DNA of 64,000 bases from an uncultured Poribacteria bacterium. Lineage in GTDB: Bacteria; Poribacteria; WGA-4E; WGA-3G. This document shows positions 14,150 through 57,658 of the stretch, in pieces. The stretch spans positions 5,024,001-5,088,000 of the forward strand of contig OX638351.1 of assembly GCA_951813565.1 (NCBI GenBank). Reading direction: 5' to 3'. The stretch's first letter is position 1. Each line of letters starts with the position of its first letter. The translations under genes and the position numbers were made by a program. The notes beneath the pieces are model-generated. The model saw nothing but the letters and a program-made list of their open reading frames with translations. It was not told the origin of the DNA and did no database searches.

Positions 14150-15229
14150 ATGCAAAAAACCCTTTCTCAAAAAATAGAAAATGCGCGAACCGCACTTGAT
14201 GCGCATGTGCGAAAAATTGTCAACTGGCACTTTAGTCCAGAAACTGGATGTCCCTTCTGGTTAGAATTCGCAGAAAACTTAGATTTTGATCCGAGAAAAG
14301 AGATCGGTGGATATGCCGATCTCAAATGCCTTGGACATTTCCAAGATGAATGGCTACGGGGTGGGCCGGTTCGACGCTGGGTACCGAAAGCGTATGCTGA
14401 TCAACCGATTTATGTTTTTGAAACCGGCGGCTCAACAGGTGTGCCGAAATGTCGCATCAGTATCCGAGATTTCCATATTGATTACGAGTTGTTCAGTCAA
14501 ACGTTATCCGACGAAAGTTTTCCACGCGGTAGCGATTGGCTGATGTTGGGTCCGACAGGACCGCGCCGATTACGGCTTGCGGTTGAACATCTCGCACAAC
14601 ATCGTGGCGGCATCTGTTTCCTTGTTGATCTTGACCCGCGTTGGGTAAATCAACTTGTCCGTTACGGAAAACATCAGGAATTGGACGCTTATAAGAGCCA
14701 CGTCATCTCGCAAGCACTAAACGTCCTAAAAGCGCACGAAAACGTTCAATGTCTCTTTACCACACCGAAACTGCTTGAAGCGTTATGTGAAAAAATCTCC
14801 TTACAAAAGGTGGGGATTAAAGGCATCTTTTGTGGCGGCACTGAAATGGACGCACAATTTCACCGTTTTGCCAGGGAAGAACTCGTACCGGGAATTGATT
14901 TTGTGCCGACCTACGGTAATACTCTCATGGGATTAGCCACATGTAAACCCTTTGATCCTGCTGATAACTACGCGATAATTTATTATCCTCCACAACCGCG
15001 CGCTGTAATTGAGTTGGTTAATCCACAAAACCCTGATGAGCCAGTAGATTATGGCGAAACGGGACGCGTCATGCTCACAACATTGACAAAGGAATTTTTT
15101 GTCCCGAGATTTCTTGAGCGTGACGAAGCAGAGCGCGCTGAACCAATTCCAGAATATCCTTGGGATGGCGTTGAAAATCTCCGTCTGCTTTCTGAACTCC
15201 AAGAAAGTGTTGTTGTGGGTGTCTATTAA
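14150..15229 (+). CDS. EhpF/GriC-like adenylate-forming protein
   Basis: WHFSPETGCPFWL, ETGGSTGVPK, PTGP, DLDPRWV, GGTE, YGETGRVML, terminal GVY match my recollection of EhpF motifs. Confidence 0.75.
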   Translation: MQKTLSQKIENARTALDAHVRKIVNWHFSPETGCPFWLEFAENLDFDPRKEIGGYADLKCLGHFQDEWLRGGPVRRWVPKAYADQPIYVFETGGSTGVPKCRISIRDFHIDYELFSQTLSDESFPRGSDWLMLGPTGPRRLRLAVEHLAQHRGGICFLVDLDPRWVNQLVRYGKHQELDAYKSHVISQALNVLKAHENVQCLFTTPKLLEALCEKISLQKVGIKGIFCGGTEMDAQFHRFAREELVPGIDFVPTYGNTLMGLATCKPFDPADNYAIIYYPPQPRAVIELVNPQNPDEPVDYGETGRVMLTTLTKEFFVPRFLERDEAERAEPIPEYPWDGVENLRLLSELQESVVVGVY

Positions 15230-15254
15230 AGTCTCTTATTCAAAGGAGATAAAC

Positions 15255-15584
15255 ATGGAACAGATTCAAATTATTGAAATAGAAGATCCAGTATACGAAG
15301 AAGCCTATGCCGCCCATATCCAAAAAAATGGGGAAAAGTGGATCGGATGGATACCGGAAGTTCCTGAAGTGAAGTGTGAAGAAAACACACAAGAAGAATT
15401 GCTGAAAACACTTGCAAAAGAACTCCACAAAGCCTTAGAAGCGGAACAGGAAGCATGGGAAAAGCAGCTTGAAGAAAATGTGAAAGCAGGGCATCTTGAT
15501 CATCTCTTAGAAAAAGCAGAAAAGAATTTCAAAGCCGGCAGATACTACAAGATAGAAGACCTCCAGAAATTACTGGAGAAGTAG
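15255..15584 (+). CDS. Putative antitoxin with HicB-like N-terminus
   Basis: AAGGAG RBS, WIGWIPEVPEVKC.E.T.EEL, directly upstream of a RelE-like toxin. Confidence 0.7.
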   Translation: MEQIQIIEIEDPVYEEAYAAHIQKNGEKWIGWIPEVPEVKCEENTQEELLKTLAKELHKALEAEQEAWEKQLEENVKAGHLDHLLEKAEKNFKAGRYYKIEDLQKLLEK

Positions 15585-15592
15585 TTTGTTAC

Positions 15593-15853
15593 ATGAATCA
15601 TATTCTGAATGTAGATTTTTGGAGGTTTTGCACGAGACTGCCTCCAGAAATTCAGAGACGTGTTCCGCAGAAATTTCAACTGCTAAGACAAAATCCAAGA
15701 CATCCTTCTCTTCGTTTCAAAAAAGTTGGGATTCTTTGGGCAATCCGAATCGGTAAGGGATACAGAGCTTTAGCACGAAAAAAGGAAAGGGTGTTCGACT
15801 GGTTTTGGATTGGAAAACACGATGAGTATATGAGGCGGATCCGAGAAAATTGA
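15593..15853 (+). CDS. RelE/ParE-superfamily toxin
   Basis: LLRQNPRHPSLRFKKVG...WAIRIGKGYRALA...WFWIGKHDEY. Confidence 0.8.
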   Translation: MNHILNVDFWRFCTRLPPEIQRRVPQKFQLLRQNPRHPSLRFKKVGILWAIRIGKGYRALARKKERVFDWFWIGKHDEYMRRIREN

Positions 15854-15881
15854 AGAATAGATATTTTATATCCATCTTCTT

Positions 15882-15980
15882 GAACGCGCTAAACCGATTC
15901 TCGAATATCCGTGGGATGGCGTTGAAAGCTTGTGCCTGCTTTCTGAATTGCAAGAAACCGTCGTAGTAGGTGTTTATTAA
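15882..15980 (+). repeat. Diverged duplicate of the last 33 codons of the EhpF-like gene (15131-15229)
   Basis: ERAKPILEYPWDGVESLCLLSELQETVVVGVY* versus ERAEPIPEYPWDGVENLRLLSELQESVVVGVY*. Confidence 0.9.
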
Positions 15981-16006
15981 CACTCTCTTATTCAAAGGAG
16001 ATAAAC

Positions 16007-16309
16007 ATGGAACAGATTCAAATTATTGAAATAAAAGATACAGTATATGAAGAAACCTATGCTGCCCATATTCAGAAAAATGGGGCAAAGTGGATCGGAT
16101 GGGTCCCAGAAGTTCCCGATGTAAAGTGTCAAGAAAACACACAGGAAGAATTGCTGAAAATGCTTGAAAAGAAACTGCATGAAGCCTTAGTCGCTGAGGA
16201 TGAGGCGTGGGAAAAGCAGTTTGAGGAAGACGTGAAGGCTGGACATCTTGACACTCTTCGCGAGGAAGCTCTTGAGGATTTACGAGCAGGAAAATGTATT
16301 GATCTATAG
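16007..16309 (+). CDS. Putative antitoxin, paralog of 15255..15584
   Basis: Same RBS context, MEQIQIIEI start and high similarity. Confidence 0.7.
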   Translation: MEQIQIIEIKDTVYEETYAAHIQKNGAKWIGWVPEVPDVKCQENTQEELLKMLEKKLHEALVAEDEAWEKQFEEDVKAGHLDTLREEALEDLRAGKCIDL

Positions 16310-32467: not shown

Positions 32468-33202
32468 GTGCCCATTTCAAGAATATTCTGGTTCGTTTCA
32501 GTCCTTATCCTATTTAGCGTTGCAAGTTTCACCACAAATGCTGAATTAGTCGGCTATTGGTCATTTGATAAAGAAGATGGAGTTACTGACCTGACTGGAA
32601 ACGGTCACGATGGCGTTATACACGGAAATCCAGAGTTCGTAGAAGGTAAGATTGGTGAGGCATTAGAATTCAACGGCGCTACTGACTACGTCGCGATCCC
32701 CGATCACAAAGCAATTTCAGAATTGGAAGCATTGTCTATGGCCGCATGGATTCAACCCAAAAAGCTCGGCGCGTGGGTAGCAGTTTTAGAAAAAGGTATC
32801 CATCTAAACTGGAGTTACGGCTTCTTCATTGAACCGGATGGCACGCTCTCGTTTGAGGTTTCTACTGGTCCCGCTAATAATCTGGTCTGCTGTGTTGGCA
32901 ATGTCGCGCTTAAGATTGATCAATGGTATCATATCTTCGGCTCTTATGATGGGAAGTCGGTAAAGGCTTATGTTGACGGTAAGTTGGAAGGCGAAATGGC
33001 GGGTAATGATGCTGTTCACATAACCGAAGGATTACCCTTTACCATCGGCAGCAGAAACGGACAAAACTTCTTTGCTGGTGTTGTTGACGAAGTTGCATTT
33101 TGGGACGAGGCAATCACTGTTGAGGAATCCATGAACCCATCACCTGTCCAACCAAAGGGTAAACTAACAACCACCTGGGGTAAGTTAAAAACTCGGCACT
33201 AA
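32468..33202 (+). CDS. Secreted LamG-like jellyroll protein
   Basis: Signal peptide, LVGYWSFD, ALEFNG, VDEVAFW, C-terminal VQPKGKLTTTWGKLK. Confidence 0.88.
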   Translation: MPISRIFWFVSVLILFSVASFTTNAELVGYWSFDKEDGVTDLTGNGHDGVIHGNPEFVEGKIGEALEFNGATDYVAIPDHKAISELEALSMAAWIQPKKLGAWVAVLEKGIHLNWSYGFFIEPDGTLSFEVSTGPANNLVCCVGNVALKIDQWYHIFGSYDGKSVKAYVDGKLEGEMAGNDAVHITEGLPFTIGSRNGQNFFAGVVDEVAFWDEAITVEESMNPSPVQPKGKLTTTWGKLKTRH

Positions 33203-38589: not shown

Positions 38590-38594
38590 ACTTA

Positions 38595-38720
38595 TAACGA
38601 CCAAACAAACGTTTCACATGGGTACCCTTGTTCTAAAATTATATTTTGAACGTTTGGCTTGGTCGCCGGGGGTGCCCCAACTTTTTGCAATAGGGGGCAC
38701 CACAGGCGACGAAGCCGCCA
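38595..38720 (+). promoter_or_regulatory. Structured 5' leader with two alternative stems
   Basis: 38620-38630 can pair with 38667-38677; alternatively a long hairpin forms over 38657-38715. Confidence 0.55.
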
Positions 38721-38766
38721 CACAATATGCAAGTGTGGCAAATGATAATTTTATAGGAGGTTATTA

Positions 38767-39450
38767 ATGATACGTAACATCCTACCTTACAAATGGATTA
38801 TAGGGGGGATAGTCCTTCTGATAATCATCGCCAGTGCATGTTACTTATGGTACCAACATGACACGGCACCTTATAGGCAAGAAGCAGCTGATGCCGAACA
38901 ATTGCTACGCCAATCGGAGATAGAAAAATCCGAGAAAAGCAAGGTAGCAGAACAGGCATCCGATGCACCTGCGGAAAGCAACACGCCAACCGCAGAGAAA
39001 CCTATAACTAACGAAGTAACCAACGACGATGAAGTCGCAACCGCAGAGAAACCGCAGATGTCCCCCTTCGGACTTGGTCCTTTGCCTGAAATACCGAAAG
39101 AATGGGACGCGCCATATCTGTGGAAAAACTGCGACGATATTGAAGATGAATTACTGACACGCGTGATCATAAAAATGCATCATGATGGCATACGCGATAA
39201 GTATAGTAGTGTCGGTATAGATCACGCCACAGGACTTGTCATACCAGTTGAATATGGCACTGTTCTTGTTTATTATGAAACCGATGAAAACGGTGAGCAA
39301 AGAATATGGAGCGTAAGCGGACATCCTGCTGACGTTCCACATGGCACTATTTACACACGTGCCAGTGAAATTCCTTCACATCTAAAGATTGTCACCGAAG
39401 AAGAGATAGCGATTGACCCTTATGAATATTTGGGTCTACAAAAACCGTAG
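38767..39450 (+). CDS. Hypothetical membrane-anchored protein
   Basis: AGGAGG RBS, N-terminal TM helix, low-complexity linker, SPFGLGP.PEIP motif. Confidence 0.75.
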   Translation: MIRNILPYKWIIGGIVLLIIIASACYLWYQHDTAPYRQEAADAEQLLRQSEIEKSEKSKVAEQASDAPAESNTPTAEKPITNEVTNDDEVATAEKPQMSPFGLGPLPEIPKEWDAPYLWKNCDDIEDELLTRVIIKMHHDGIRDKYSSVGIDHATGLVIPVEYGTVLVYYETDENGEQRIWSVSGHPADVPHGTIYTRASEIPSHLKIVTEEEIAIDPYEYLGLQKP

Positions 39451-39464
39451 GAGGTTTTATTATC

Positions 39465-40268
39465 ATGAAAAAAGTAGTAGTTTTCTTAACAATAGCGATT
39501 TTCATTGGCATGATCGCCTATGTCGCATATTCTAATTCTAATCGTCGTTCATCCTGGGTCTATTTAGACATCAATTCAACGTATGGTTCTGCTTATAATC
39601 CACCAACTTTTAGAGCTAAAGGATGTTTCGGCTCCGATAGCGAGGGTCCGTTGTATAGCTCAGGGGATTCATCTGTCAGCTATACGGATGATGGATACGA
39701 CCGCACTACCGGGCTTAACAATACCGAAGCATTTGCTTATCCAGCAGGAGCTGAGGGGGCACTCAATGAAATATTGGATGCCGGTCATTACTTTGAGAAT
39801 AATCTGGTATTAGAGGATGCTGAGGGTACTCTAACTGATGTTGTAGGTTTTTTGGCTAATGAGGATTTTAAAATATATAGAGCAAAGACCTATAATAGGA
39901 AATTTGCAGTGAGTGCTGACGCCTATGTTTCTTGTTGGACAGATAATGCTAACTACAAAACAGAGTATAACCTATATGCCCAAGTGCCAGCAGGTTTTTA
40001 ATACCCAAATTATCGGAAGATAGGGCCTATAACGAAATATGGTTCATTCTCTCGTTCTACCTCACGCAGCGGCGATAAAGATGGGTGGGATCATGAAATC
40101 AGCACGAACCCGAATGGGCAAGCTTCTGCCTCTGGAACGAATCCATCAGATGGGACGACGCATAACACATCTGCTTTCACACCCACGCCGGGCAGTGCGA
40201 ATGAATTAACTATCAACTGTGGTTTCTGTGATGACTCTGGGTGTGATGTCTGTAATCCGCACAGATAA
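39465..40268 (+). pseudogene. Secreted hypothetical protein with in-frame TAA at 39999-40001 and Cys-rich C-terminus
   Basis: Same frame stays open for 88 more codons to CGFCDDSGCDVCNPHR*, and a terminator follows. Confidence 0.7.
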
Positions 40269-41122: not shown

Positions 41123-42280
41123 TCAGAGACTGCCTGCCGAGGCAGGTGTTACGTCTCCTCCTGAAAAGGTTGACGCCCCAACCTTATGAATATTTATAGC
41201 GGCGTTTATATCGCGGTCATGAGAGATTTTGCAGTGATGACAATACCAATCGCGCACACTCAAATTAAAGAACATCTGGATTTGTCCGCAGGCGTGGCAA
41301 ACTTTGCTTGTGGGTGTCCATCTGTCAATCTGCTTGACATGCTTGCATCGTTTTTGTGCTTGCCATTTGATTTTCAGCATGAAATCTCCAAAGGCGTAGT
41401 CAGAGACTTTTCGTCCCCAGAGGCGTTTCATGCCATCAAGGTTCAAGTCTTCAAAGTAGCAGACATCAAACTTTCGGACAAGTTCAAGTGCGAGTTTCCA
41501 GTGATGGTCTTCACGTTGCCGATTGATTTTCCTGTGTACCCGTGCAAGGTCTTTCCTCACACGCTCGCGATTGTTGCTGCCTTTTTGCTTCCGAGACAAC
41601 GCACGACTCGCACGTTTTATCAGTTTAGCAGCAGATTTATAGAATTCAGGAGATTGATATTTTGTGCCATCGGAACAGGTGAGGAAGTGCTTGAGTCCAA
41701 AGTCAAACCCTGCTGTCCTACCAGTCTTAGGTGCAGGCTCAAGTCCCTCAGTGTCTGTTGTGATAGTGATATACCAATCCCCTACAAAGTCTTTCTTAAC
41801 GGTAACCTGTTTGATGTTGCCTTCAATAGGTCGGCTATACCAGAATCGGTACCAGCGTCTATTGATACGGATTTTCGCAACGGGGCAGCCATCTATTTTG
41901 TCAATAGTTTCTATTTTCACTTGGCTACCATCAAAAGTCATAGATTTATATTTATACCGACTTCTAAATTTAGGTGGACGCTTGGCTCTACCTTCAAAGA
42001 AGTTTTGCCAACCTCTGTCAACACGTTGGATACATTCTTGCAAACACCAAGAATACGGAACAGTCCAGTGTTGATATTTAGCAAGTCGTTTCAGTTTCGT
42101 CAGATGTTTAATCATTCTGTAGCAGCTTGGACGCTTATAGTCTTCGCAATGTCCGTAGATGCGATAGTGACGCTGCCACAACGCAACAAAATGGTTATGG
42201 ACATGTGCAATGATATGCAAATCTTTTTGCATAAGACGGTTTCTTTTGTGTTCTTGTCCCTTGTATTTGTAGGTTCGCAT
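41123..42280 (-). CDS. tnpB: TnpB RNA-guided endonuclease
   Basis: GFDFG, YFEDL, CHAC...CHHC, DRDINAA. Confidence 0.95.
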   Translation of the reverse strand: MRTYKYKGQEHKRNRLMQKDLHIIAHVHNHFVALWQRHYRIYGHCEDYKRPSCYRMIKHLTKLKRLAKYQHWTVPYSWCLQECIQRVDRGWQNFFEGRAKRPPKFRSRYKYKSMTFDGSQVKIETIDKIDGCPVAKIRINRRWYRFWYSRPIEGNIKQVTVKKDFVGDWYITITTDTEGLEPAPKTGRTAGFDFGLKHFLTCSDGTKYQSPEFYKSAAKLIKRASRALSRKQKGSNNRERVRKDLARVHRKINRQREDHHWKLALELVRKFDVCYFEDLNLDGMKRLWGRKVSDYAFGDFMLKIKWQAQKRCKHVKQIDRWTPTSKVCHACGQIQMFFNLSVRDWYCHHCKISHDRDINAAINIHKVGASTFSGGDVTPASAGSL

Positions 42281-46742: not shown

Positions 46743-46764
46743 TAATTTCCAATTGCAACCCTTT

Positions 46765-46788
46765 GCTGGCGAGGTTTCCTAACCTCGC
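46765..46788. repeat. REP palindrome; perfect 24-bp inverted partner at 47281-47304 flanks the RAYT gene
   Basis: GCTGGCGAGGTTTCCTAACCTCGC / GCGAGGTTAGGAAACCTCGCCAGC. Confidence 0.85.
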
Positions 46789-46793
46789 TATTT

Positions 46794-47258
46794 TCACCAT
46801 CCCATCTCGTATTTACACCGCCAATACGGATACTCCCGGGCAGTTTTTACCAACCCTTTTCTCACAGGATTCAAGTAACAATAGCGGATCATCTTATTCA
46901 ATGCCGTCTCATCCCGAACCGCCCAATCCCTATACTCGGCTTGCCAGAACCTCCCACACCGTGATAGATGTTTATTGATTTCACGTGCTGTAAACAGTTT
47001 CAGTGAGTGCAAAACCTTTGGAAGTGTTTGTCCGATCCCAAGTTCAATTATGCTATGGACATGGTCGGGCATAATCATGATACAAATCCACCGAATCCGG
47101 TGTTTCGTTTCTAACCAATCAAATGTTTCAAAGATAATTGAGGCGACGTTGTTGTTTGCAAGAAGCGGCAGCCGCTGGTGTGTATTGATTATAATATGGT
47201 AATAGGCACCAGATATTGAAGTCCGGCCTTTACGCAAGTCATGATTTGAAAATTTCAT
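46794..47258 (-). CDS. REP-associated tyrosine transposase (RAYT, Y1 HUH)
   Basis: YHIIINT, IMPDHVH (HUH), FWQ..Y.D..VR, Y..LNPVRKGLV, YPYW. Confidence 0.9.
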   Translation of the reverse strand: MKFSNHDLRKGRTSISGAYYHIIINTHQRLPLLANNNVASIIFETFDWLETKHRIRWICIMIMPDHVHSIIELGIGQTLPKVLHSLKLFTAREINKHLSRCGRFWQAEYRDWAVRDETALNKMIRYCYLNPVRKGLVKTAREYPYWRCKYEMGW

Positions 47259-47478
47259 GATATTTTCCTCCATCTGCTTGGCGAGGTTAGGAAACCTCGC
47301 CAGCAGCGTGTTATACCAAATTATTCTAAATCATTGGGGCGGGGTCCCACTGAATGCCACAAAGACATTCACAGTGTTGATTTGATGCCCACCCGTGTTT
47401 TCGGTAGTGAAATAATAAAAATCTCGTTAATTTTGGTATGATACGAAGGCCTCATGGAAATTGCATAAACCCTAATTA

Positions 47479-47567
47479 TTACTGCGAAACTGTAATCAAC
47501 CGATACAACTGCAGCACAGTAACAGAAGACGCCTGGAGGCTAATGTAGACTTTCGGTCAACGGATAC
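47479..47567 (-). repeat. Distal cassette boundary: diverged 49-bp copy of the 3' end of gene 52216..53184 (41/49 identical) plus a 40-bp cassette tail
   Basis: Encodes SVTVLQLYRLITVSQ*; tail 47528-47567 identical to 49926-49965. Confidence 0.9.
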
Positions 47568-48611
47568 CTATTTCTTTAGTGCCCCCCACCTGACTTTTTT
47601 TTTGCCCTGTGGTGAGACAGACAGCACATCATCACTTATCCAATCCAGTGTCCCATCCGTGCCCGGATGGTTTGTTAACCGCGTTATCTCACCTGTCCAA
47701 ATATGATACTTATAGATATTGCACGGTGGGTATACAAAACCGCGCGGCAGCGGTTTGTCCAAAGGGATGCCGACATACGCACCGAAAACGATTGATTCAC
47801 CGTCCTCCATCCAGTCTATACCGTATCCTTCCCAGTCTTTCGGTATTCGGAGTTGCCTGATGTTCCCGCCGTTCCGATCACAAACGATATACCGGAACGC
47901 TTTGTAGACAGGAAAGTTCCCGTCATTCGGTATCGACACGTATTTATACTCTTTTTGTTGAAATACGATCTGCTTACCATCGGGCGACCAGCGCGTTCTC
48001 GATCTATAAGTGGCGAATTCTCCTGGGCCGGGGGCAGGGAGAAGTGGGCGCGGGTTATGACCATCTGCTCCCATAATCCAGATCGTGCTATTGACGCCGA
48101 TTGTCTGTCCCAATGCAAACACAATATGCTTACCATCCGGCGACCAATCACATTGGATACCCCAGATATCCGATATTTGTTCCATCTTCCCCGTCTGAAT
48201 ATTCAGCACGTAGATGCCGCCTTTCAACTCGTCGTTTTTTCGATAAGTCCTACCAAAAACAATAGATGTGCCATCTGGTGAAAATCTGCCGCCGTTGATA
48301 GAACTCCCATCGTTTTCAGTGAGTTGCCGAATGTTTGTGCCATCTGCATTCATCAAGAAAAGAACGTAATTTGCGTTTCTCTTCGCGCGTCTCTTAAACA
48401 GAATCTGTTGACCGTCCGACGACCAAGTGGGGCAACACGGTCTCAACGTTTCAGATTCGGTCAGTGGCGTGATATTGCTGCCATCATCGTCCATAACATA
48501 GATACCGTAGAGACCACCATCATGTCGTGAACTAAAAACGATTTTTGCATCTGCCGCTGTTGACAAAAGCAGTAGCAGCAGACAGAGTAGGCCGGCTTTT
48601 TGGAGGCACAT
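47568..48611 (-). CDS. Secreted TolB-like (PD40) beta-propeller, cassette 2
   Basis: Signal peptide, WSPDG repeats, C-terminal VSPQGKKKVRWGALKK. Confidence 0.85.
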   Translation of the reverse strand: MCLQKAGLLCLLLLLLSTAADAKIVFSSRHDGGLYGIYVMDDDGSNITPLTESETLRPCCPTWSSDGQQILFKRRAKRNANYVLFLMNADGTNIRQLTENDGSSINGGRFSPDGTSIVFGRTYRKNDELKGGIYVLNIQTGKMEQISDIWGIQCDWSPDGKHIVFALGQTIGVNSTIWIMGADGHNPRPLLPAPGPGEFATYRSRTRWSPDGKQIVFQQKEYKYVSIPNDGNFPVYKAFRYIVCDRNGGNIRQLRIPKDWEGYGIDWMEDGESIVFGAYVGIPLDKPLPRGFVYPPCNIYKYHIWTGEITRLTNHPGTDGTLDWISDDVLSVSPQGKKKVRWGALKK

Positions 48612-48667
48612 GGTTATTCTCCTTGTAGGGAATGGCAGGGGAATTTATCCCTGCCGTTACATTGGAA

Positions 48668-49511
48668 TTATGGATTATCTACATCCGTAAATTCCTGAAC
48701 ACCGGTATCCGCTTCCCAGTGGTCTTCCTCATGCTGACCAGCTATTTCACCATTCACTTGGAGGTGGGTGTGCGCATCAAAATAAAGCACTTCCTCATCT
48801 CCGATTTGTCTGCCGAGTGAATATTCGACCACCATAGAATCGACGGAATCAGAATGCGTGTCCCCAGACGGAAGATCGTCAAAGACAATTGGTTGGTCAA
48901 GAGGGGGGTCTCTTTTGATCCATTCCTGGGCCCCAGGCCCATTTGCAAGGGTGGTGAACTTCTGCTGTCGGAACCAGGCGGCGGCATCAAGTTCTATATT
49001 GGTGCCGTTATATGCTGAGGCAGAGGCACTCATGACGAAAGACGATCCATCAAAGTAGTGGGCTGAGACTTCTGCATAGCCGTACACACCGGTATTTTCT
49101 CCGATACCTGATGTTACTACCGGTTGGTAGAGTGTTAGGTAATAGGACTCGGTGTCTTCAGAAGGATCTCCATCATTTTCTCGCCAGGCTTCTGCGCGGA
49201 TCTCATACTCTCTACCTTTAACGGTTCCATCATTCAAGTTGTGCCATAAATTAAAATGGGCACTCGTTTTGACTTCATTACCAGAAAAAGTCTGTCCTAT
49301 CAATTCTTCGCCAAAATAAATGTCTATCTGGTCATAGGGTTCATTGGTTTCAACGGACACAGATAAAGATGTACCGCCATCACTTGAAGTATATCCAGAG
49401 GCACTCATCTCCACAATCTCAATATCAGCTTTACTACTATTGACAATACTAACTTAGCAATAGGGAACATATAATTGCTACTGCAATGCCGATTGATTTC
49501 AATCTTAACAT
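48668..49511 (-). pseudogene. Secreted acidic beta-rich protein, cassette 2, frameshifted in its signal peptide
   Basis: MLRLKSIGIAVAIICSLLLS then a frame change (~49450) to SIVNSSKADIEIVEMSASG; homologous to 51050..51850. Confidence 0.8.
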
Positions 49512-49556
49512 TTTTCTCTCCTTGTAAGGTAATATGCTTTGATAGCATATCGGTTA

Positions 49557-49925
49557 TTTATCGGGTTCCCTATCCTTGTTCGGTAGACCTTCCACCGCTT
49601 AGTAAAGATTTGGGCACCCTTACAACTAAACTATGATTCTTTACATAGTATTAGAAAGGGCACCTATATTGAAATCAATGTTTTGGCTATAACCAAGATT
49701 ATACAACAAATTCCGAACCTATGCAAAATGCTTAACATGGATTTCCAAAACAACGATATATGATACCCTTCATAATGTTAAGACACAGTATTAAGTTGCA
49801 AAGGGGGCATTCCACAAAAAAAAATGAAATTAGGAAAATAAACAGATTCTAATATGCACTTCTGTTTTCAAAAACTTTATTCGGAGGCTGTTATCAACCG
49901 ATACAACTGCGGCACGGTAACAGAA
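49557..49925 (-). repeat. ~369-bp direct repeat (copy at 51897-52264): host gene tail, promoter TTGCAT-N17-TATAAT and structured leader
   Basis: Identical except for A9 versus A8; similarity extends with a few changes into the signal-peptide codons. Confidence 0.95.
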
Positions 49926-49965
49926 GACGCCTGGAGGCTAATGTAGACTTTCGGTCAACGGATAC

Positions 49966-50985
49966 CTATTTCTTTAGCGTTCCCCACGTTACTTTTTTTT
50001 TGCCTTGCGGGGTAGCAGAAAGCACATCATCGCTGATCCAATCCAACGAAGGATTCAACCATGTTTGTTCTGATAACCGGGTGATGCGTCCTGTAGCAAT
50101 ATTATATTTATAGAGATGGTAAGGATGCACCAAACCTTCTACCGGAACATTTAATTCTACTTCCCTTGCACTGAATAGAATGGATTTACCGTTATCCATC
50201 CAGTCAAGCGCGCTCGGGAAATACGTCTTCGGTATCAGCAGTTGCTTGGATTGATGTGTGAATAGATCGTAAATAAAATAACGGTTTGCCTGTGGAATGA
50301 AACCGACATTTGGATTAAATTTTGATTCATACTGGCCATATAGTATCTGTTTTCCGTTTGGAGACCATCTGGCATAGCCACCCCGGTTAATCAATACCTC
50401 CCCCAGCGGTAGTTGTGGTAGCAATTCGCGCGGATGTCCGCCATCGGCATCCATGATCCATAGATTACTTCCTGTCTTTCCCAAAACCGGAATATCAGAA
50501 AAAACAATCTGCTTGCCGTCGGGAGACCAGTCGGGAAAGTTTACACCGAAATCGGCGATCTTTTTTATCTTACCACTAACCAAGTCAATAACATTGACAC
50601 TTCGTTTGAGTTCGTTATCTATTCTCTCACTTCTACCAAACAGAACAGACGTGCCATCCGGAGAAAATACGGGTTTCGAATCCTTCGCCCCTCGTGTCAA
50701 GAGACGTTCATTTGTGCCATCTGCGTTTATGACAACAATCTGTCTCCGATCCCAATTACCTGGTTTCAGAAATCTTGCAAAAACAATATGTTTACCATCG
50801 GGGGACCAGCGCGTGGCAGTAGGGTATCGCGTATCAATGAGTATCGTGGTGATCCCTGTGCCATCATCCTCCATCACGGAGATGCTCTTAACTTCTTCCG
50901 CTATGTATGATACAACAACGATCTTTGCGGTTACCGCTGTGGCAATCAGCAGAAGCAAGCAGAGTGTGAATACCAGTATTCGCAT
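49966..50985 (-). CDS. Secreted TolB-like (PD40) beta-propeller, cassette 1
   Basis: AAGGAG RBS before MRILVF, WSPDG repeats, C-terminal ATPQGKKKVTWGTLKK. Confidence 0.85.
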   Translation of the reverse strand: MRILVFTLCLLLLIATAVTAKIVVVSYIAEEVKSISVMEDDGTGITTILIDTRYPTATRWSPDGKHIVFARFLKPGNWDRRQIVVINADGTNERLLTRGAKDSKPVFSPDGTSVLFGRSERIDNELKRSVNVIDLVSGKIKKIADFGVNFPDWSPDGKQIVFSDIPVLGKTGSNLWIMDADGGHPRELLPQLPLGEVLINRGGYARWSPNGKQILYGQYESKFNPNVGFIPQANRYFIYDLFTHQSKQLLIPKTYFPSALDWMDNGKSILFSAREVELNVPVEGLVHPYHLYKYNIATGRITRLSEQTWLNPSLDWISDDVLSATPQGKKKVTWGTLKK

Positions 50986-51049
50986 AATAACACTCCTTAT
51001 ACTTTGTGGAAGGGGCTCTAAAACCCCTTCCAAATAAATGCCGAAAAGA

Positions 51050-51850
51050 TCAATTGTGTTCGCAATCTAAGGTATTTATAAGTAAATAATCGTCGGTTCC
51101 ATTGTTACCGCCCACCTTGAGACGGACGTATGCTTCACCAGTGTATTCCGTACCCTGCCAACCACCCGACAGTGTTATACCTTGAGAACCTGGATCACGA
51201 AAGGATCTTTTTCCATCCTCACCCCTTATTTCGCCAGCATTAGGATTCCAATCTTTATTTTCTTTTCCTGCTATATCGGGGAAAGAAGCTTTATACTCAG
51301 TCCCCACATCAACCGTGCCATCGGCTTTTTCTCCATTATGATATGCGGTGGCCCAGTAGTCAAATGACATATACCCGGACGCATAGTCATAAGTATGCTT
51401 GCTAATTTGCACATATCCATCCACGAAGAGAAGGTGTTGGACACCATCAGGGGTAGATTTGGAGATCGGCGCATAGATTGTCAATTCGTAGGAGTCATTG
51501 TCAGAGAGATAATTCGCGTTCTCGTCTATATGCCAAGCGACTGCCTTTATTGTGTAATCAGCACCTGATATATCACCTGACAAGGTGGGGTAGCACGTCG
51601 CGTTGGTCTCGTTCCCCGATAGCAGACTCGTATATTCATATACGACGTTCCCATCTTTATCCTCTACAGACCAGTCCACATAGTTAATGCCTTCATCTGT
51701 TGTTATATACGCGTAGCAATAGGCACCATCTCCCCAATCATCAGCTCCGGCTGCTGTCATCCAAGTAATCTCAATAGCATGACTATTGATAACAAAGCAC
51801 AGGGAACAGAGCATCGCCACTGCCATGCCGATTGATTTCAATCTTAACAT
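51050..51850 (-). CDS. Secreted acidic beta-rich hypothetical protein, cassette 1
   Basis: AAGGAG RBS, signal peptide ending SHA. Confidence 0.8.
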   Translation of the reverse strand: MLRLKSIGMAVAMLCSLCFVINSHAIEITWMTAAGADDWGDGAYCYAYITTDEGINYVDWSVEDKDGNVVYEYTSLLSGNETNATCYPTLSGDISGADYTIKAVAWHIDENANYLSDNDSYELTIYAPISKSTPDGVQHLLFVDGYVQISKHTYDYASGYMSFDYWATAYHNGEKADGTVDVGTEYKASFPDIAGKENKDWNPNAGEIRGEDGKRSFRDPGSQGITLSGGWQGTEYTGEAYVRLKVGGNNGTDDYLLINTLDCEHN

Positions 51851-52215
51851 TTTTCTCTCCTTGTAAGGTAATATGCTTTTGTAGCATATCGTAGTGTTTA
51901 TCGGGTTCCCTATCCTTGTTCGGTAGACCTTCCACCGCTTAGTAAAGATTTGGGCACCCTTACAACTAAACTATGATTCTTTACATAGTATTAGAAAGGG
52001 CACCTATATTGAAATCAATGTTTTGGCTATAACCAAGATTATACAACAAATTCCGAACCTATGCAAAATGCTTAACATGGATTTCCAAAACAACGATATA
52101 TGATACCCTTCATAATGTTAAGACACAGTATTAAGTTGCAAAGGGGGCATTCCACAAAAAAAATGAAATTAGGAAAATAAACAGATTCTAATATGCACTT
52201 CTGTTTTCAAAAACT

Positions 52216-53184
52216 TTATTCGGAGGCTGTTATCAACCGATACAACTGCGGCACGGTAACAGAAAAATCGCCAGAAATGTGGTAACTCTTCCCACCATCC
52301 TTGACAGTGCGAATAAGAATTGTCTTTTTAGGGCGGTGATAGTAATGCGAATCGGTGGGTTTACCTTCCTCCTGAAAATCTGGAAAATCAATCAAATCGA
52401 AATTAGCGGTGGTGAAATGCCGAATTTCTTCACCTCGTTGTGTAGCAATGTTCCGCGCCATAGATAGGCTTTTGAGGTAGACCTCAGGTCCCATCACAGC
52501 AGAACCTAAGTTCAGGAAAACGCCACCTTCCAATTGCGAAACAGTGTGCACAAATCGGAGAAAATCCTCCCCCGTTGTCCAACCGATAGCGGCATAATCC
52601 GCAGCAGGATGCTGATCGGTTATATCGTAGCCAATACCTTTGTGAACGGTTATCGGCACACCTAATCGGAACGCTGCAGCAAATATGCTCACATCACGGT
52701 GTGGAAAAGAGATGTCCTCTTCTCCTTCTTGGATCAATCTGCCAATTGCCTCTCCAAAACCGATTTTATCTTTGTAGCCTCTAACGATAGCTTCGTTCAG
52801 ATAGCGTCCCGTTTCTTCCCAATTGCCAAACTTTCCATCCTTTATATACATCTCCACATCTTCAAGTGTTGCGCCGATGTGTGCCATTTCAAAATCGTGG
52901 ATAGCACATGCACCATTAGTTGCTATATGTGTTATTATTCCGCGTTCCATCAGATCAATGATGTAACGGGAGTTGCCACGCCGCATCACGTGCGCACCCA
53001 TCATCCAGATAACCTGTTTCTTGTTTTGGCGTGCTTGGACAATACGTTCAGCAACGATGTTTAGCCGTTCATTTTGATATGGAGGCGTTTCAGCATCTAA
53101 GGTATAGATGTCTGCCACGGTCATCTTGTGTTGGCGTTCAGAGAGCGGCAAGATTCTAAGGCGAGAGCGATTAAATTGTGACAT
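52216..53184 (-). CDS. Conserved protein, deoxyhypusine-synthase-like NAD-binding fold
   Basis: MMGAHV, ATNGACAIHDFE, IGYDITDQHP, GSAVMGPEVYLK. Confidence 0.6.
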   Translation of the reverse strand: MSQFNRSRLRILPLSERQHKMTVADIYTLDAETPPYQNERLNIVAERIVQARQNKKQVIWMMGAHVMRRGNSRYIIDLMERGIITHIATNGACAIHDFEMAHIGATLEDVEMYIKDGKFGNWEETGRYLNEAIVRGYKDKIGFGEAIGRLIQEGEEDISFPHRDVSIFAAAFRLGVPITVHKGIGYDITDQHPAADYAAIGWTTGEDFLRFVHTVSQLEGGVFLNLGSAVMGPEVYLKSLSMARNIATQRGEEIRHFTTANFDLIDFPDFQEEGKPTDSHYYHRPKKTILIRTVKDGGKSYHISGDFSVTVPQLYRLITASE

Positions 53185-53208
53185 TATTTTGGGATTGTGT
53201 AGTAAGGT

Positions 53209-56200
53209 CTATGCTGCAAACTTGGCTGAAACAATTTTCGACATACCCGCTTGCTCCATCGTCACGCCGTACATCACATCGGATATCTCCATAGTGCGCC
53301 TATTATGCGTGATAATCACGAACTGCGTATTATCCGAATATGCACGAATAAGATTTGTGAAACGTAGTACGTTTGCTTCATCAAGGGCAGCATCTACTTC
53401 GTCAAGGACACAGAAGGGGCTTGGCTTGATTTTGAAAACAGCGAACAACAATCCAATTGCAACAAGCGAACGTTCACCACCAGAAAGTTGGGTAATACTT
53501 TGTGGTCGTTTTCCAGGCGGGCAAGCGATAATATCAATACCAGATTCAAGGATATTTGATTCATCTGTCAAGCGCAATTCTGTTTCGCCTCCGCCAAAGA
53601 GTTGAGTAAATACCTCTTGGAAGTTAATCTTAACCTGCTCAAACGTTTTGAGGAACACACCTCGTGAAGTTTCGTTGATTTTCTGAATTGCTTGATTGAG
53701 GTCTTGTATTGATTGCTGAACATCATCACGATCTCGCACGAGAGAATCCAATCGCTTCTTGTATTCCTCATGTGCTTCAATTGCCTTAAGGTTGACTGCC
53801 CCCATAGCCGAGATTTCCGCCTTCAATTTTTCAATGTTATCCATCACGTCAATTTCATCAAGTTCTGAAATGGCTGGCACAGAAGATTGTTCCTCGTCTT
53901 CAGATACTTCATCTTGCACCATCGGTTTAGGAATTTCATCAATTGAAACTTGATATTTATCAAGGATGCGGGTTGAGATGGATTTTAATTGCATCTCAAA
54001 TTGCGTTGTTTTCACTTCAAGTTGATTCCGTGTGCGATTTTGCTTTTCAAACTTTTTCTGAATGTCGCGCCTCTCTTTTTCAAGCGTTTCGATCTGCCCA
54101 GAGACCGTTTCATGTTCTTCGGTTAACTCATCTTTTTTTGCTTCTGCTTCAGCCTGGTCCCCCGCAATTCGTAGGAATTTGCGTTGTGTCTCTCTAATCT
54201 GATCAGCGATGTCATGTTTAGTTTGTTCATCAGAGTCAATAATTGCTTGTTGTTCATCAATATTCTGCTCTATTTGAAGTTGTTGTTCATCAAAGTTATC
54301 AAGCTCAGTTGTTAAGCTTTCCAATTTCTGTCGTTGTCCTGCCAAAAAGACTTCCATCTCCTGGCATTCCGCAGCTACTTCTTCTCGTTTATTCTCTTCA
54401 TTTTCAATGTCTTCAGATATCCGCTGAATCCTACGTTCTGTTCTGGTATGTTTTTTGGTGAGTTCTTCAATTTCTACATCAAGGGTCTGCTGTACCCCAC
54501 GTGAAAGATCTACCGTTTCTTGAAAATGTCTATTATCAGTTTCAACTTCAGCGAGTTGTGTTTCAAGGCGTGTAATGTTTTGGTCCGCCAGCTCAATATC
54601 CTTTGTTATGGCAGCTTTTCCAATCTGTTTGTCTTGCAATTGACCAGTGAGTGTTTTTCTGGATTGTTCTGCATTGGCAATTGCCGCAGCGTATGCTTTA
54701 CGTTTTTCATCCTTCTGACTGACAATTTGTTGTAGTTTGCCGATCTTGGTTTGCAACGCATCAAGTTCGCTTGCACGGCTGAGGAGTCCACTTTTCTGTT
54801 GAGCAGTGTGCCCGCCAGTGATAGCCCCCGAAGTATCGAATAATTCACCATCCAAGGTAACCAAACGGGCGTTTGGTTTGAATTTACGTTTCAGTGCAAC
54901 TGCATCATCCATATTTTCAACGATGAGTGTGTTACCCAACAGTTGTTGAACCACAGTCTGGTATTTGTCATCATAATCCACTAATTCTTCTGCAATACCG
55001 ATGACCCCTGGCTCGTAAAGAAGTCCAGCATCAGAGAACGTTCTGCGTCGTAACATATCAAGCGGTAGGAATTTGACCCTGCCTGCGCGATGTTTTTTGA
55101 GAAATGAGATGCCAGCAACAACGTCTTCAGCAGTTTCGGTGACAACATTTTGTATACTACTACCAAGCGCAATCTCTATGGCGACTTCAAATTCGGCATC
55201 CGTGTGGATAAGTTCTGCTACAACACCACAAATTCCACCGAATTGCTCTGGAAAGTGGTCTTTTGCTTGCATAATTGCGCGTACACCTGCGTAGAAACCT
55301 TCATACGCGGATTGTAATTGCTCTAATGATTTATACCGCGAAAGACTACCGCCTAAGTTATCTTCTATTCCGCGTATTTCAGATTCAATTTTTCGAAGCG
55401 CGTCCTGAGTTTCGTTGAGTGTCGTTTCAACCCGTTTTTTCTCCGTCCCAATCTGAAGCAATTCAGCCTCTAATTGGGTCGCTGCACGTTGAATTTCTTC
55501 GCGATCATCTGTAGCAGTTTTTAGCTCCGCTTTCAAAGCATTAGAATTTTCTTTAAGTCGGTCAAGGCTGCTTTCCGTGCTCGTTAGTTTAGTTGCAATT
55601 GTTAAGCGTTTGTTCTTGCGTTCGGAAAGTTGCGCAGCAATCTCTTGCAACTCAGATTGCACCTCTTGGATAGTCTTCCTTGATTTTTCAATACTTGAGG
55701 CGTATGTCTCTAAAACTTGTTGGCGTCCAGTTAATCGGGTCTCTTCAATCTTGAGTGATGCATCAAGTCTTTTCTGTTCTTGCGTTCGTTCTTGTTTCCG
55801 TGTTTGTAGGTTTGCGTGCTGTACATTTAAGGATTCAAGAGTCTGTTGCGCTCGTTGTTTCTGCTGTTGAATATTCAACTGATTTTCTTTATAAATAGCA
55901 AGCTGTCGTTCAATCTTATCTACTTGTTCTTCAATCTCACGTATTTCTTCCTGGGCAACGGTGATTGCAGTATCTAATTCAGTTCGTCTGACAGTTGCGT
56001 TTTCAATCCCTTCTTCCGCTTCTTGTAAGATCTGATTTGCGTCAGAAACCTCGTTCAAAATTGCCGCTAAGTTATTTTGCGTTTCACGATAATCTGTATC
56101 AAGTTTTTCGTATTCTCGATAAGCTAATTCTAAATCTAATTGTCGGAGTTGTTCATTTAACGATTGCAAATGTTCAGCTTGTTCAGCTTGCTCTCTCAAA

Positions 56201-56920: not shown

Positions 56921-57658
56921 TCATACAGGGTCTAAAGCCCGTGCTAAAGTTAACACATCTATTTCAACTGGGTCGGCATTCCATAAGACTTTTACTGCCT
57001 CATGCACAGTAGCACCAGTGGTGTATACATCGTCCAGAACAAGTATACGTTTGTTCTGCGCAACCTTTTTCTTCTGTAGTTCAAAAGCACCAACAATATT
57101 TGTTTGACGTGCTGCTCTATCCAAGCTGCTCTGCGGTGACGTGTTCCGATGCCGAACCAGAACGTCTGTTACAACTTGAACTCCCGTGGTCTTGGCAATT
57201 CCGTTCGCAAGTAAAGTTGCTTGGTTAAAGCCGCGTTCCCGCAACCGCTTTTTATGAATAGGAATTGGTAAAATAAAGTCGTATTCTGCGATATTGCAGT
57301 CATCGGGAAAATGTTCTATTGTCAATTGGGTAAGCGGTTTGGCGAGTGCTGTTCGCTTCTCAAACTTAAAAAGGTGCATCGCCTGCTGGAGTGCTGCTTC
57401 ATAGAAAGCAATCGTCCGTAATTTTCCGTAAGGTGGCGGTTTGCTCACACATTCATCACAGACATCTTCAGTATTTGGGATGCCGCACATTTCACAACAA
57501 GGCGGTTCAATTAACGGCATATCATGCCAGCATGTTTCACACATATAAGGCACAGATTCAAGTCCGATTTGCTTTTCACAAACTTGACATTGTGCAGGAT
57601 AGAGAAACGTGATTGCTGTTTCGAGTGTTTGTTGGAGGATATTTGGTCGTACTTGCAT
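56921..57658 (-). CDS. comF: ComF-family protein (double zinc ribbon + phosphoribosyltransferase)
   Basis: CxxC pairs, RGFNQ, LDDVYTTGAT. Confidence 0.9.
   Translation of the reverse strand: MQVRPNILQQTLETAITFLYPAQCQVCEKQIGLESVPYMCETCWHDMPLIEPPCCEMCGIPNTEDVCDECVSKPPPYGKLRTIAFYEAALQQAMHLFKFEKRTALAKPLTQLTIEHFPDDCNIAEYDFILPIPIHKKRLRERGFNQATLLANGIAKTTGVQVVTDVLVRHRNTSPQSSLDRAARQTNIVGAFELQKKKVAQNKRILVLDDVYTTGATVHEAVKVLWNADPVEIDVLTLARALDPV

Follow-up and report, generated by a model that had tools for sequence, protein, structure and literature searches.

How do two neighbouring gene cassettes come to have almost identical non-coding ends when the proteins encoded between those ends have strongly diverged? 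This question is raised by a tandem array on contig OX638351.1 (GCA_951813565.1) of an uncultured Poribacteria bacterium. The stretch analysed, referred to below as the window, comprises 64,000 nt (contig positions 5,024,001–5,088,000); the coordinates of the array are window positions, and its features lie on the minus strand. Poribacteria are abundant, uncultured symbionts of sponges, and a close homologue of the first secreted protein of the array carries the label Candidatus Poribacteria. The source genome is denoted G000 and its relatives within the genus by other G numbers (G006, G013, G051, G054, etc.), whereas L numbers designate loci; the secreted proteins of units A and B are called X1 and X2, and their propellers T1 and T2. 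The two units are members of a genus-wide cassette family in which a structured leader is followed by a variable secreted protein and one to three TolB-like propellers. Our preferred explanation, which we consider probable, is that these tandem family members exchange their cargo by homologous recombination in conserved ends, that the duplicated gene end beside them arose by single-crossover integration of donor DNA without an integrase, and that the propeller, as predicted, binds its partner.

Two cassettes with constant ends

The array stands behind a host gene of the GSU2086 family (52216–53184; 322 aa; NF052581, 383.7 bits for a cut-off of 250), located 3' of smc and with orthologues in relatives. 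The last 49 bp of this gene (52216–52264), encoding ITASE before the stop, recur exactly (49/49) at 49877–49925, where the two units meet, and in a decayed form (41/49; ...LITVSQ before the stop) at 47479–47527. The spacings are 2339 and 2398 bp, and weaker homology to the host end extends to about −57. Unit A consists of a spacer with a sigma-70-like promoter (52038–52215; TTTGCA-18-TATAAT at 52067–52038, a consensus match only), a structured leader (51865–52033), the gene for X1 (51050–51850; 266 aa), a hairpin read off the sequence (51008–51031), the gene for T1 (49966–50985) and a 40-bp tail (49926–49965), which is the 3' untranslated region of the propeller. Unit B repeats this order: spacer and promoter (49698–49876), leader (49526–49693), X2, a paralogue of X1 (48668–49511), a hairpin again read off the sequence (48634–48655), T2 (47568–48611) and tail (47528–47567).

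From the stop onward, the two leader regions differ by a single homopolymer base in about 320 bp, and as far as the ATG they agree at 359 of 366 positions; the tails are identical (40/40). The single-base difference may be a consensus error, because it falls within a stretch of T and the collapsed contigs from three public sequencing runs (X1, X5 and X6) do not show it. X1 and X2, by contrast, are only 29% identical (over 151 aa) and T1 and T2 45%. The first-pass annotation of this DNA had described the repeats, their spacing and this inverted pattern of conservation, and all three hold. It had also placed a secreted protein in each unit, which is correct for X1; X2 has a frameshift in its signal peptide, at about 49453, in this strain. 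Among the 25 longest of 44 inverted repeats listed, none bounds the units.

A genus-wide family of paired proteins

A profile of the X proteins retrieved 233 clusters at 50% identity and matched 22 of 29 sampled genomes of the genus (1–13 matches each), versus four of 71 other genomes of the phylum. At 55 loci picked for X matches, 55 of the 58 X open reading frames (ORFs) of at least 200 aa are directly followed by a propeller, often by two or three. Site and cargo are not tied to each other: site I holds one cargo type in G000 and another in G012, G048 and G052, the cargo of the Que site differs between G002 and G048, that of site G differs among five genomes, and seven sites filled in other genomes are empty in G000.

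X1 was modelled as two beta-sandwiches (predicted local distance difference test, pLDDT, 78), both domains being predicted to be all-beta. The N-terminal domain (N-domain) matches Ig/FnIII-type folds (best Z 11.8, root-mean-square deviation 2.3, 96 residues aligned). The X proteins have no family match in Pfam or NCBIfam, and no enzymatic toxin domain was detected, the C-terminal domain (C-domain) not having been searched alone. An Atlas search with X1 returned only leads under 0.9, and Foldseek against the PDB only generic tandem-sandwich matches (TM about 0.25). A single-sequence model of a G006 cargo protein was discarded as unusable (pLDDT 47). Like TolB, the propellers are built of PD40 repeats (PF07676 for T1). 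Unlike TolB, they score far below the family cut-off (79.5 bits for T1, and 89 bits, for a TIGR02800 cut-off of 343), comprise a propeller of about 340 aa only, lie away from tol-pal genes and have dozens of paralogues. A loose version of their conserved C-terminal motif, V.P..K...WG.LK, is matched by 103 ORFs of G000, including one at window 32468–33202; it may be a sorting signal, a role that would account for the conservation of the DNA at the propeller 3' end.

The two proteins of a cassette appear to be partners, as the first-pass annotation had proposed. Across 53 cassettes, identity in the C-domain follows identity in the propeller (rho 0.83, Mantel p 0.001), whereas the N-domain follows neither the propeller (rho 0.03, p 0.22) nor the C-domain (rho 0.09). 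Co-folding of T1 with X1 gave a score of 0.62, against 0.01 for the best of three controls, with runs agreeing in at least 82% of contacts and a partner pLDDT of at least 86; the mark applied is reached by 116 of 157 solved complexes and by two of 215 mismatched pairs. The predicted contacts lie mostly on the C-domain of X1, and the propeller columns involved are the variable ones (conservation 0.30 versus 0.60). These predictions support binding of X1 by the propeller, and bear on binding rather than on specificity. By binding the C-domain of its cognate X, the propeller would then build with it a diversified recognition module outside the cell, the N-terminal Ig-like domain being shuffled on its own. 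The function that we would assign to the cassette by inference is accordingly that of a variable surface-recognition pair.

The same pairs could be polymorphic effectors with their immunity proteins. X would then be secreted as an antagonist, the cognate propeller would neutralise its C-domain and extra propellers would serve as spare immunity; the picture of recombination would be unchanged. The regular succession of X and one or more propellers and the hypervariability of the predicted contact columns fit such an arrangement, as does the frequent breakage or loss of X where propellers remain (X2; site G in G006; G050). Nevertheless, both X domains are predicted to be all-beta and match no enzyme family in Pfam or NCBIfam, both proteins have signal peptides with no delivery genes linked to them, and the loop faces of propellers vary in any case. 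This assignment is therefore considered unlikely.

Two further observations concern gene content at such loci. In four of 51 loci (L111, 7145–7780; L248, L267 and L280), a 212-aa sigma-70-type gene lies directly 5' of X. In a second cassette class, under a related leader, the gene for a membrane-anchored protein comes before that for a small, variable secreted one; this class is found in the window (38594–40001, plus strand), where neither protein has an NCBIfam match, and at 2042209, 3853918 and 4698969 in G000.

The structured leader

The leader is about 170 nt long, and 24 copies behind a conserved −10 box align to three hairpins. Of 41 base pairs, 15 change on both sides, a number reached by none of 500 shuffles, and pairing reaches 95.5%, versus 34–46% in slid controls; the minimum free energy of leader A is −44.4 (z −3.5). 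Leader B stood outside the alignment, being near-identical to the included leader A, and scores 142 bits with the leader model (R1). This model matches 20 of 29 genomes of the genus and none of 71 others. No Rfam match came near a gathering score at window 47000–53000 or in L106, L107, L109 and L110. Species genomes contain 19 exact copies of the leader motif, of which 16 are in Poribacteria records and three outside them, and the motif is absent from the viral contigs searched. As for the promoter, sigma-70-like matches are no commoner than chance (11 found versus 11.5 in shuffles), and the −10 box is kept in 25 of 30 leader copies.

This leader precedes 11 of 52 X loci, and another 12 carry a second type. 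The latter, about 350–400 nt long, lies 5' of X genes (in G000 C1 at about 1679580–1679990, 1985250–1985680 and 4562850–4563250) and has only its last hairpin in common with the first type; two copies were scanned against Rfam, and neither matched. Small secreted proteins paired with propellers have yet another conserved region, the third, 5' of them (G000 C1 1044326, plus strand; 1101066, minus; 3634972, plus). In some leaders of the first type (G006, G052 and G021), the arms of the first hairpin (H1) are mismatched and match different loci, which looks like the product of crossovers inside the leader.

The site in related genomes

The host orthologue was examined in 23 genomes of the genus, G000 included. 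The site is empty in 15, the host gene being followed directly by a flavin adenine dinucleotide (FAD) oxidoreductase gene in 12 and, in three, by a gene that we take to be recG; three more have other neighbours. The full frame with its displaced end is present in two (G000 and G006), and three (G013, G051 and G054) have only the first 20–65 bp of the element side, followed by other genes. A fixed two-unit locus among relatives is thus not what was found. The metagenomes searched with the host gene gave 79 loci, and none of the four examined was filled.

G006 has the same leader (324/372 relative to the window), host gene (873/969), tail (its first 35 bp or so) and displaced end. Its cargo differs: two other propellers accompany a secreted protein, about 168 aa long, that is unrelated to those of the window, which bears out the expectation of variable cargo between constant ends. 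Since leader and host gene are similarly diverged while the cargo is unrelated, the frame is an old one in which the cargo was replaced. The distal gene-end copy of G006 reads ITASV before the stop, as in relatives with an empty site, and for this reason the distal copy is recognised, by its sequence, as the old host gene end, displaced. The current end of the host gene in G000 is likely donor-derived, as the same end and the same next bases occur in G006 and variants of it in G013, G051 and G054, other relatives ending otherwise. The analogy with attL and attR sites drawn in the first-pass annotation stands to this extent.

The 40-bp tail ends before a terminator-like hairpin that is found at most other loci. 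In G054, the same downstream gene directly adjoins a cassette that has a remnant of a terminator of its own; a displaced host end is lacking, and this arrangement may show the order of the donor. Two other traces were seen at this site. In G051 (L066 2975–3100), a leader with an internal deletion and then unrelated genes come after the element-side start, the remains of a decayed cassette. In four relatives (L105, L011, L006 and L010), a decayed copy of the last 60 bp or so of recG follows the FAD oxidoreductase gene, which suggests that this gene likewise entered behind recG with a gene-end duplication.

Gene-end duplications elsewhere in the genome

A repeat of the gene end bounds one of 52 cassette loci, that of the window. 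The repeat is a trait of the genome and not of the cassette family. For 3294 ORFs of at least 200 aa, non-coding DNA up to 20 kb away was searched for copies of the last 60 nt, which were found downstream for 14 ORFs and upstream for two. Control segments situated 240 and 480 nt further in gave 2 versus 2 and 0 versus 0. That only fragments carrying a gene's end leave the gene intact would account for this bias. In about eight of the 14 cases, the cargo enclosed is unrelated, for instance toxin-antitoxin-like pairs or hypothetical genes. An 11-kb carotenoid-like operon was added by a looser search, and two hosts carry three copies each (the carotenoid-like and toxin-antitoxin-like labels are our presumptive reading of the sequences). 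The junctions start from about −48 to −201, and no shared core was seen.

One such case lies in the window itself (14150–16100, plus strand): behind a gene that ends at 15229 lie a small toxin-antitoxin-like pair and then a displaced copy of that gene's last 99 bp. In G054, an X-propeller cassette sits inside the same insertion as that of the window 15229 gene. L249, considered as a second repeat-bounded cassette, was rejected, the repeat belonging to the earlier two-gene insertion that it has in common with window 15229–15980. At G000 C1 2106573 (minus strand), 1483462 (plus) and 3130979 (plus), two or three insertions stand behind one gene, each closed by a gene-end copy; the hosts of these arrays are presumably hsdM-like, dioxygenase-like and nicotinate phosphoribosyltransferase-like. 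Target duplications were sought at eight filled loci, which represent seven sites empty in G000; none is clear, intergenic repeats obscuring the boundaries, and the RND site provides one weak 26-bp case.

A recombination model and its rivals

Integration would have begun with a donor lineage whose host gene was immediately followed by a cassette. A fragment that started about 57 bp 5' of the stop and ended 40 bp beyond the propeller, without reaching the terminator-like hairpin, would have recircularised. A single crossover into an empty recipient site would then have given the gene its donor end and moved the old end to the far side of the insertion. In a second step, for which the pattern is seen and the mechanism conjectured, leader and tail would stay at the site while the cargo is replaced; the crossovers would fall within the leader or signal peptide, where the N- and C-domains join, and in the conserved propeller C-terminus. 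A mosaic of this kind, with crossovers at several places and incongruent N- and C-parts, is suggested by sequence comparison of the cassettes. In a third step, a crossover in the 369-bp repeat would have added the second unit. Genes of the comEC and dprA-like types are present in G000.

Several points weigh against this model. No circle, excision or exchange was observed, and no Ku that could account for end joining was found in G000. Of the 14 gene-end copies, about five resemble what tandem paralogues would leave behind (three inspected, two judged from the count listing), and the counterpart test with gene starts gave 22 versus 27 with crude start calls. The donor order attributed to G054 was pieced together across two contigs broken at an insertion sequence. 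The junctions of G000 and G006 are nearly identical, as one old event would leave them, but so would a fixed site. A single clade of the five genomes with an element-side start was rejected on the host-gene tree (approximately unbiased test, p 4e-7; 17 rows, tree from the gene body), a pattern that repeated site-specific insertion would also give. As for the pairing of the two proteins, the adjacency of their genes alone could yield the co-variation of C-domain and propeller, related cassettes are not independent, and close cousins also pass the co-fold test.

A more far-reaching proposal, for which we see a small chance, is an undescribed multi-locus diversification system, in which hundreds of Ig-like/propeller pairs are shuffled among expression sites under a new class of structured leader, the hairpins acting as recombination substrates or as guides for a dedicated enzyme. 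Gene gain without an integrase, leaving gene-end duplications of 50–200 bp behind unrelated genes, would be a separate process, so far undescribed as a pattern in nature.

Also improbable is a site-specific system, with the cassettes as non-autonomous integrative elements, the tail, gene end and leader start together forming an attP, and a recombinase (tyrosine, Y1 HUH or other) acting in trans, perhaps by recognising the leader hairpins. It is entertained mainly because of the attL/attP/attR-like geometry, the non-monophyly of the genomes with an element-side start and the strongly covarying hairpins; the similar junction in G000 and G006 also fits. Candidate enzymes are encoded in G000, which has 10 matches to Y1 transposases and one 207-aa tyrosine recombinase; its three matches to PF00239 (resolvase) lie elsewhere. 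A Y1 transposase associated with repetitive extragenic palindromes (REP) adjoins the distal gene end, as a neighbour outside the units (46757–47312, with 46794–47273 lying within; minus strand; 32-bp inverted repeats; NF047646, 116 bits for a cut-off of 80), and has no counterpart in G006. It had been overlooked in the first-pass statement that no integrase lies nearby, which stands insofar as the window contains no tyrosine or serine recombinase match, the only PF00589 match being about 300 kb away. No IS110 element was found in G000. An integron is not indicated either: the window contains no intI-type tyrosine recombinase, and no attC was seen in the tails or leaders, inspected by eye alone against the attC consensus. 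Against a site-specific system, moreover, the repeat is confined to one cassette locus, the junction of tail and displaced end is matched at length in only two of 40 genomes of the genus, the same signature accompanies unrelated cargo at varying lengths, no recombinase is linked and crossovers fall at several positions. The earlier view of the constant ends as handles of a dedicated system, and of the gene-end copies as its att sites, is therefore not supported, and homologous recombination in conserved ends is preferred.

Plain duplication and drift, in which an old local tandem duplication had its ends homogenised by gene conversion with no exchange between loci, has very little in its favour. 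Tandem propeller duplicates of 88–95% identity do exist at several loci. However, X2 and T2 are closer to other loci than to unit A: T2 is 60% identical to a paralogue at another G000 locus and 78% identical to L250, versus 45% to T1, and the tree places it with propellers of other loci, apart from T1. The unrelated cargo of G006 in the same frame speaks against it too.

Read evidence for the tandem

Thirteen public runs contain part of the stretch, eight of them at least half; five were compared, all as short-read contigs, which do not separate a circle junction from a tandem junction. In run X1, possibly the source sample, units A and B both have a depth of 31.8x, the distal end 30.8x and the downstream genes 31.7–35.6x, whereas the common leader (60.5x) and common tail (60x) have double that depth, and the shared contig begins exactly at 52264. 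In run X4, from another study, the depths are 34.8x for A, 35x for B, 35.6x for the distal end and 34.8x for the host gene. Two alleles would give the cargo half the depth of the flanks, and equal depth was seen; the two-unit tandem is therefore genuine, and not a product of joined alleles. That assembly fused two strain alleles at the 369-bp repeat is scarcely credible in the face of these equal and doubled depths, even though none of the listed contigs covers the entire stretch, run X1 may be the source sample itself and the 107-bp contig of run X5 that crosses the internal junction (49840–49946, with no difference from the window) has only 21 nt on the tail side, less than the 31 nt of the bridging rule.

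The runs also reveal variation at the locus. The extra base at about 49453 that shifts the frame of X2 is present in runs X1, X5 and X9 and absent from X4 and X6, the last having another single-base loss; the frameshift is therefore a strain polymorphism. In run X9, most of unit A is without cover, and a 10.3-kb host contig has the leader once and abuts unit B, which hints at a one-unit allele, missing cover proving nothing in itself. Doubled depths in runs X5 and X6 may reflect a third unit or a mixture of strains. The host gene (window 52164–53400) is about 2.5% off the window sequence in runs X4 and X6, with cargo and downstream genes 0–4 bases off, suggesting that the host segment recently recombined within the species.

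Relation to known systems

Minimal mobile elements of Neisseria carry alternative cargo or none between conserved flanks, and their exchange is attributed to homologous recombination without an integrase, according to excerpts of two reports (PMC3787668, PMC1797815). The Poribacteria site resembles them in having different or no cargo between conserved flanks at a syntenic position. It differs in that its arms lie inside the cassette (leader, signal peptide and propeller C-terminus) and are common to many loci per genome, in that cargo types recur at different sites and in that the site also carries a gene-end duplication. In the lpl cluster of Staphylococcus aureus, recombination at an internal conserved region shuffles the 5' and 3' variable parts, the 3' part travelling with the next gene (PMC2568036, in part). 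The incongruence of N- and C-domains and the joint travel of C-domain and propeller are comparable; unlike lpl, the Poribacteria cassettes comprise two protein families in a predicted complex, and their loci, up to about 13 per genome, each have a separate leader.

At gene 3' ends, integrase islands restore the gene with the incoming end, displace the old end distally and can accumulate as tandem units. The direct repeats flanking the array and the distal old end agree with this, whereas no integrase is linked, no core is fixed and the repeat is lacking at 51 of 52 cassette loci. Insertion sequences with long target duplications are also unlike the units: terminal inverted repeats were not seen at their bounds among the 25 longest of the 44 listed, and the duplications measure 48–200 bp rather than being short and fixed. 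Classical homology-facilitated illegitimate recombination gives deletions. A likeness is found in E. coli, in which recircularised linear DNA and a single crossover produced duplications of 109–950 bp (portions of PMC3240628). There, as here, a duplicated gene end of variable length flanks foreign DNA; that was a rare laboratory by-product of conjugation, whereas a natural Poribacteria genome carries a similar footprint, in fixed form, behind several of its genes.

The maf/fha loci are generally understood to encode toxins. Their cassettes are described, in excerpts, as a variable C-terminal part with a downstream partner, extra partner copies and recombinational exchange (PMC1797815). The X-propeller cassettes differ from polymorphic toxin-immunity loci in that no enzymatic toxin domain was detected, the N-domain is as variable as the C-domain and every unit has its own promoter. 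By analogy only, a preprint on Actinomycetota describes, in the part cited, a sensor with Ig-like repeats and a variable propeller (PMC13622651).

Other features of the window

An IS605/TnpB-type gene and a ComF-like gene occupy window positions 41123–42280 and 56921–57658. Elsewhere in the source genome, a CRISPR-like array adjoins a reverse transcriptase match (G000 C1 3992476–3996454 and 3990853–3991839).

Biological significance

No description of the cassette family, the leader or the gene-end pattern was found in the literature searched, mostly without subscription papers and without supplements. Within the known type of recombination-shuffled cassette families, three components thus appear to be new: the pairs of X and propeller, the leader, and the footprint of gene ends across the genome. 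They provide a large, unannotated family of secreted protein pairs with a testable cognate rule, according to which the C-domain goes with its propeller, a genus-restricted structured leader with no Rfam entry and a genome-wide footprint of gene gain without an integrase. Secreted repeat proteins of Poribacteria have been proposed to act in host interaction (PMC3909097, in part). If the cassettes are indeed recognition modules, the pairs would be candidates for determinants of strain-level identity toward sponge cells, phages or neighbours.

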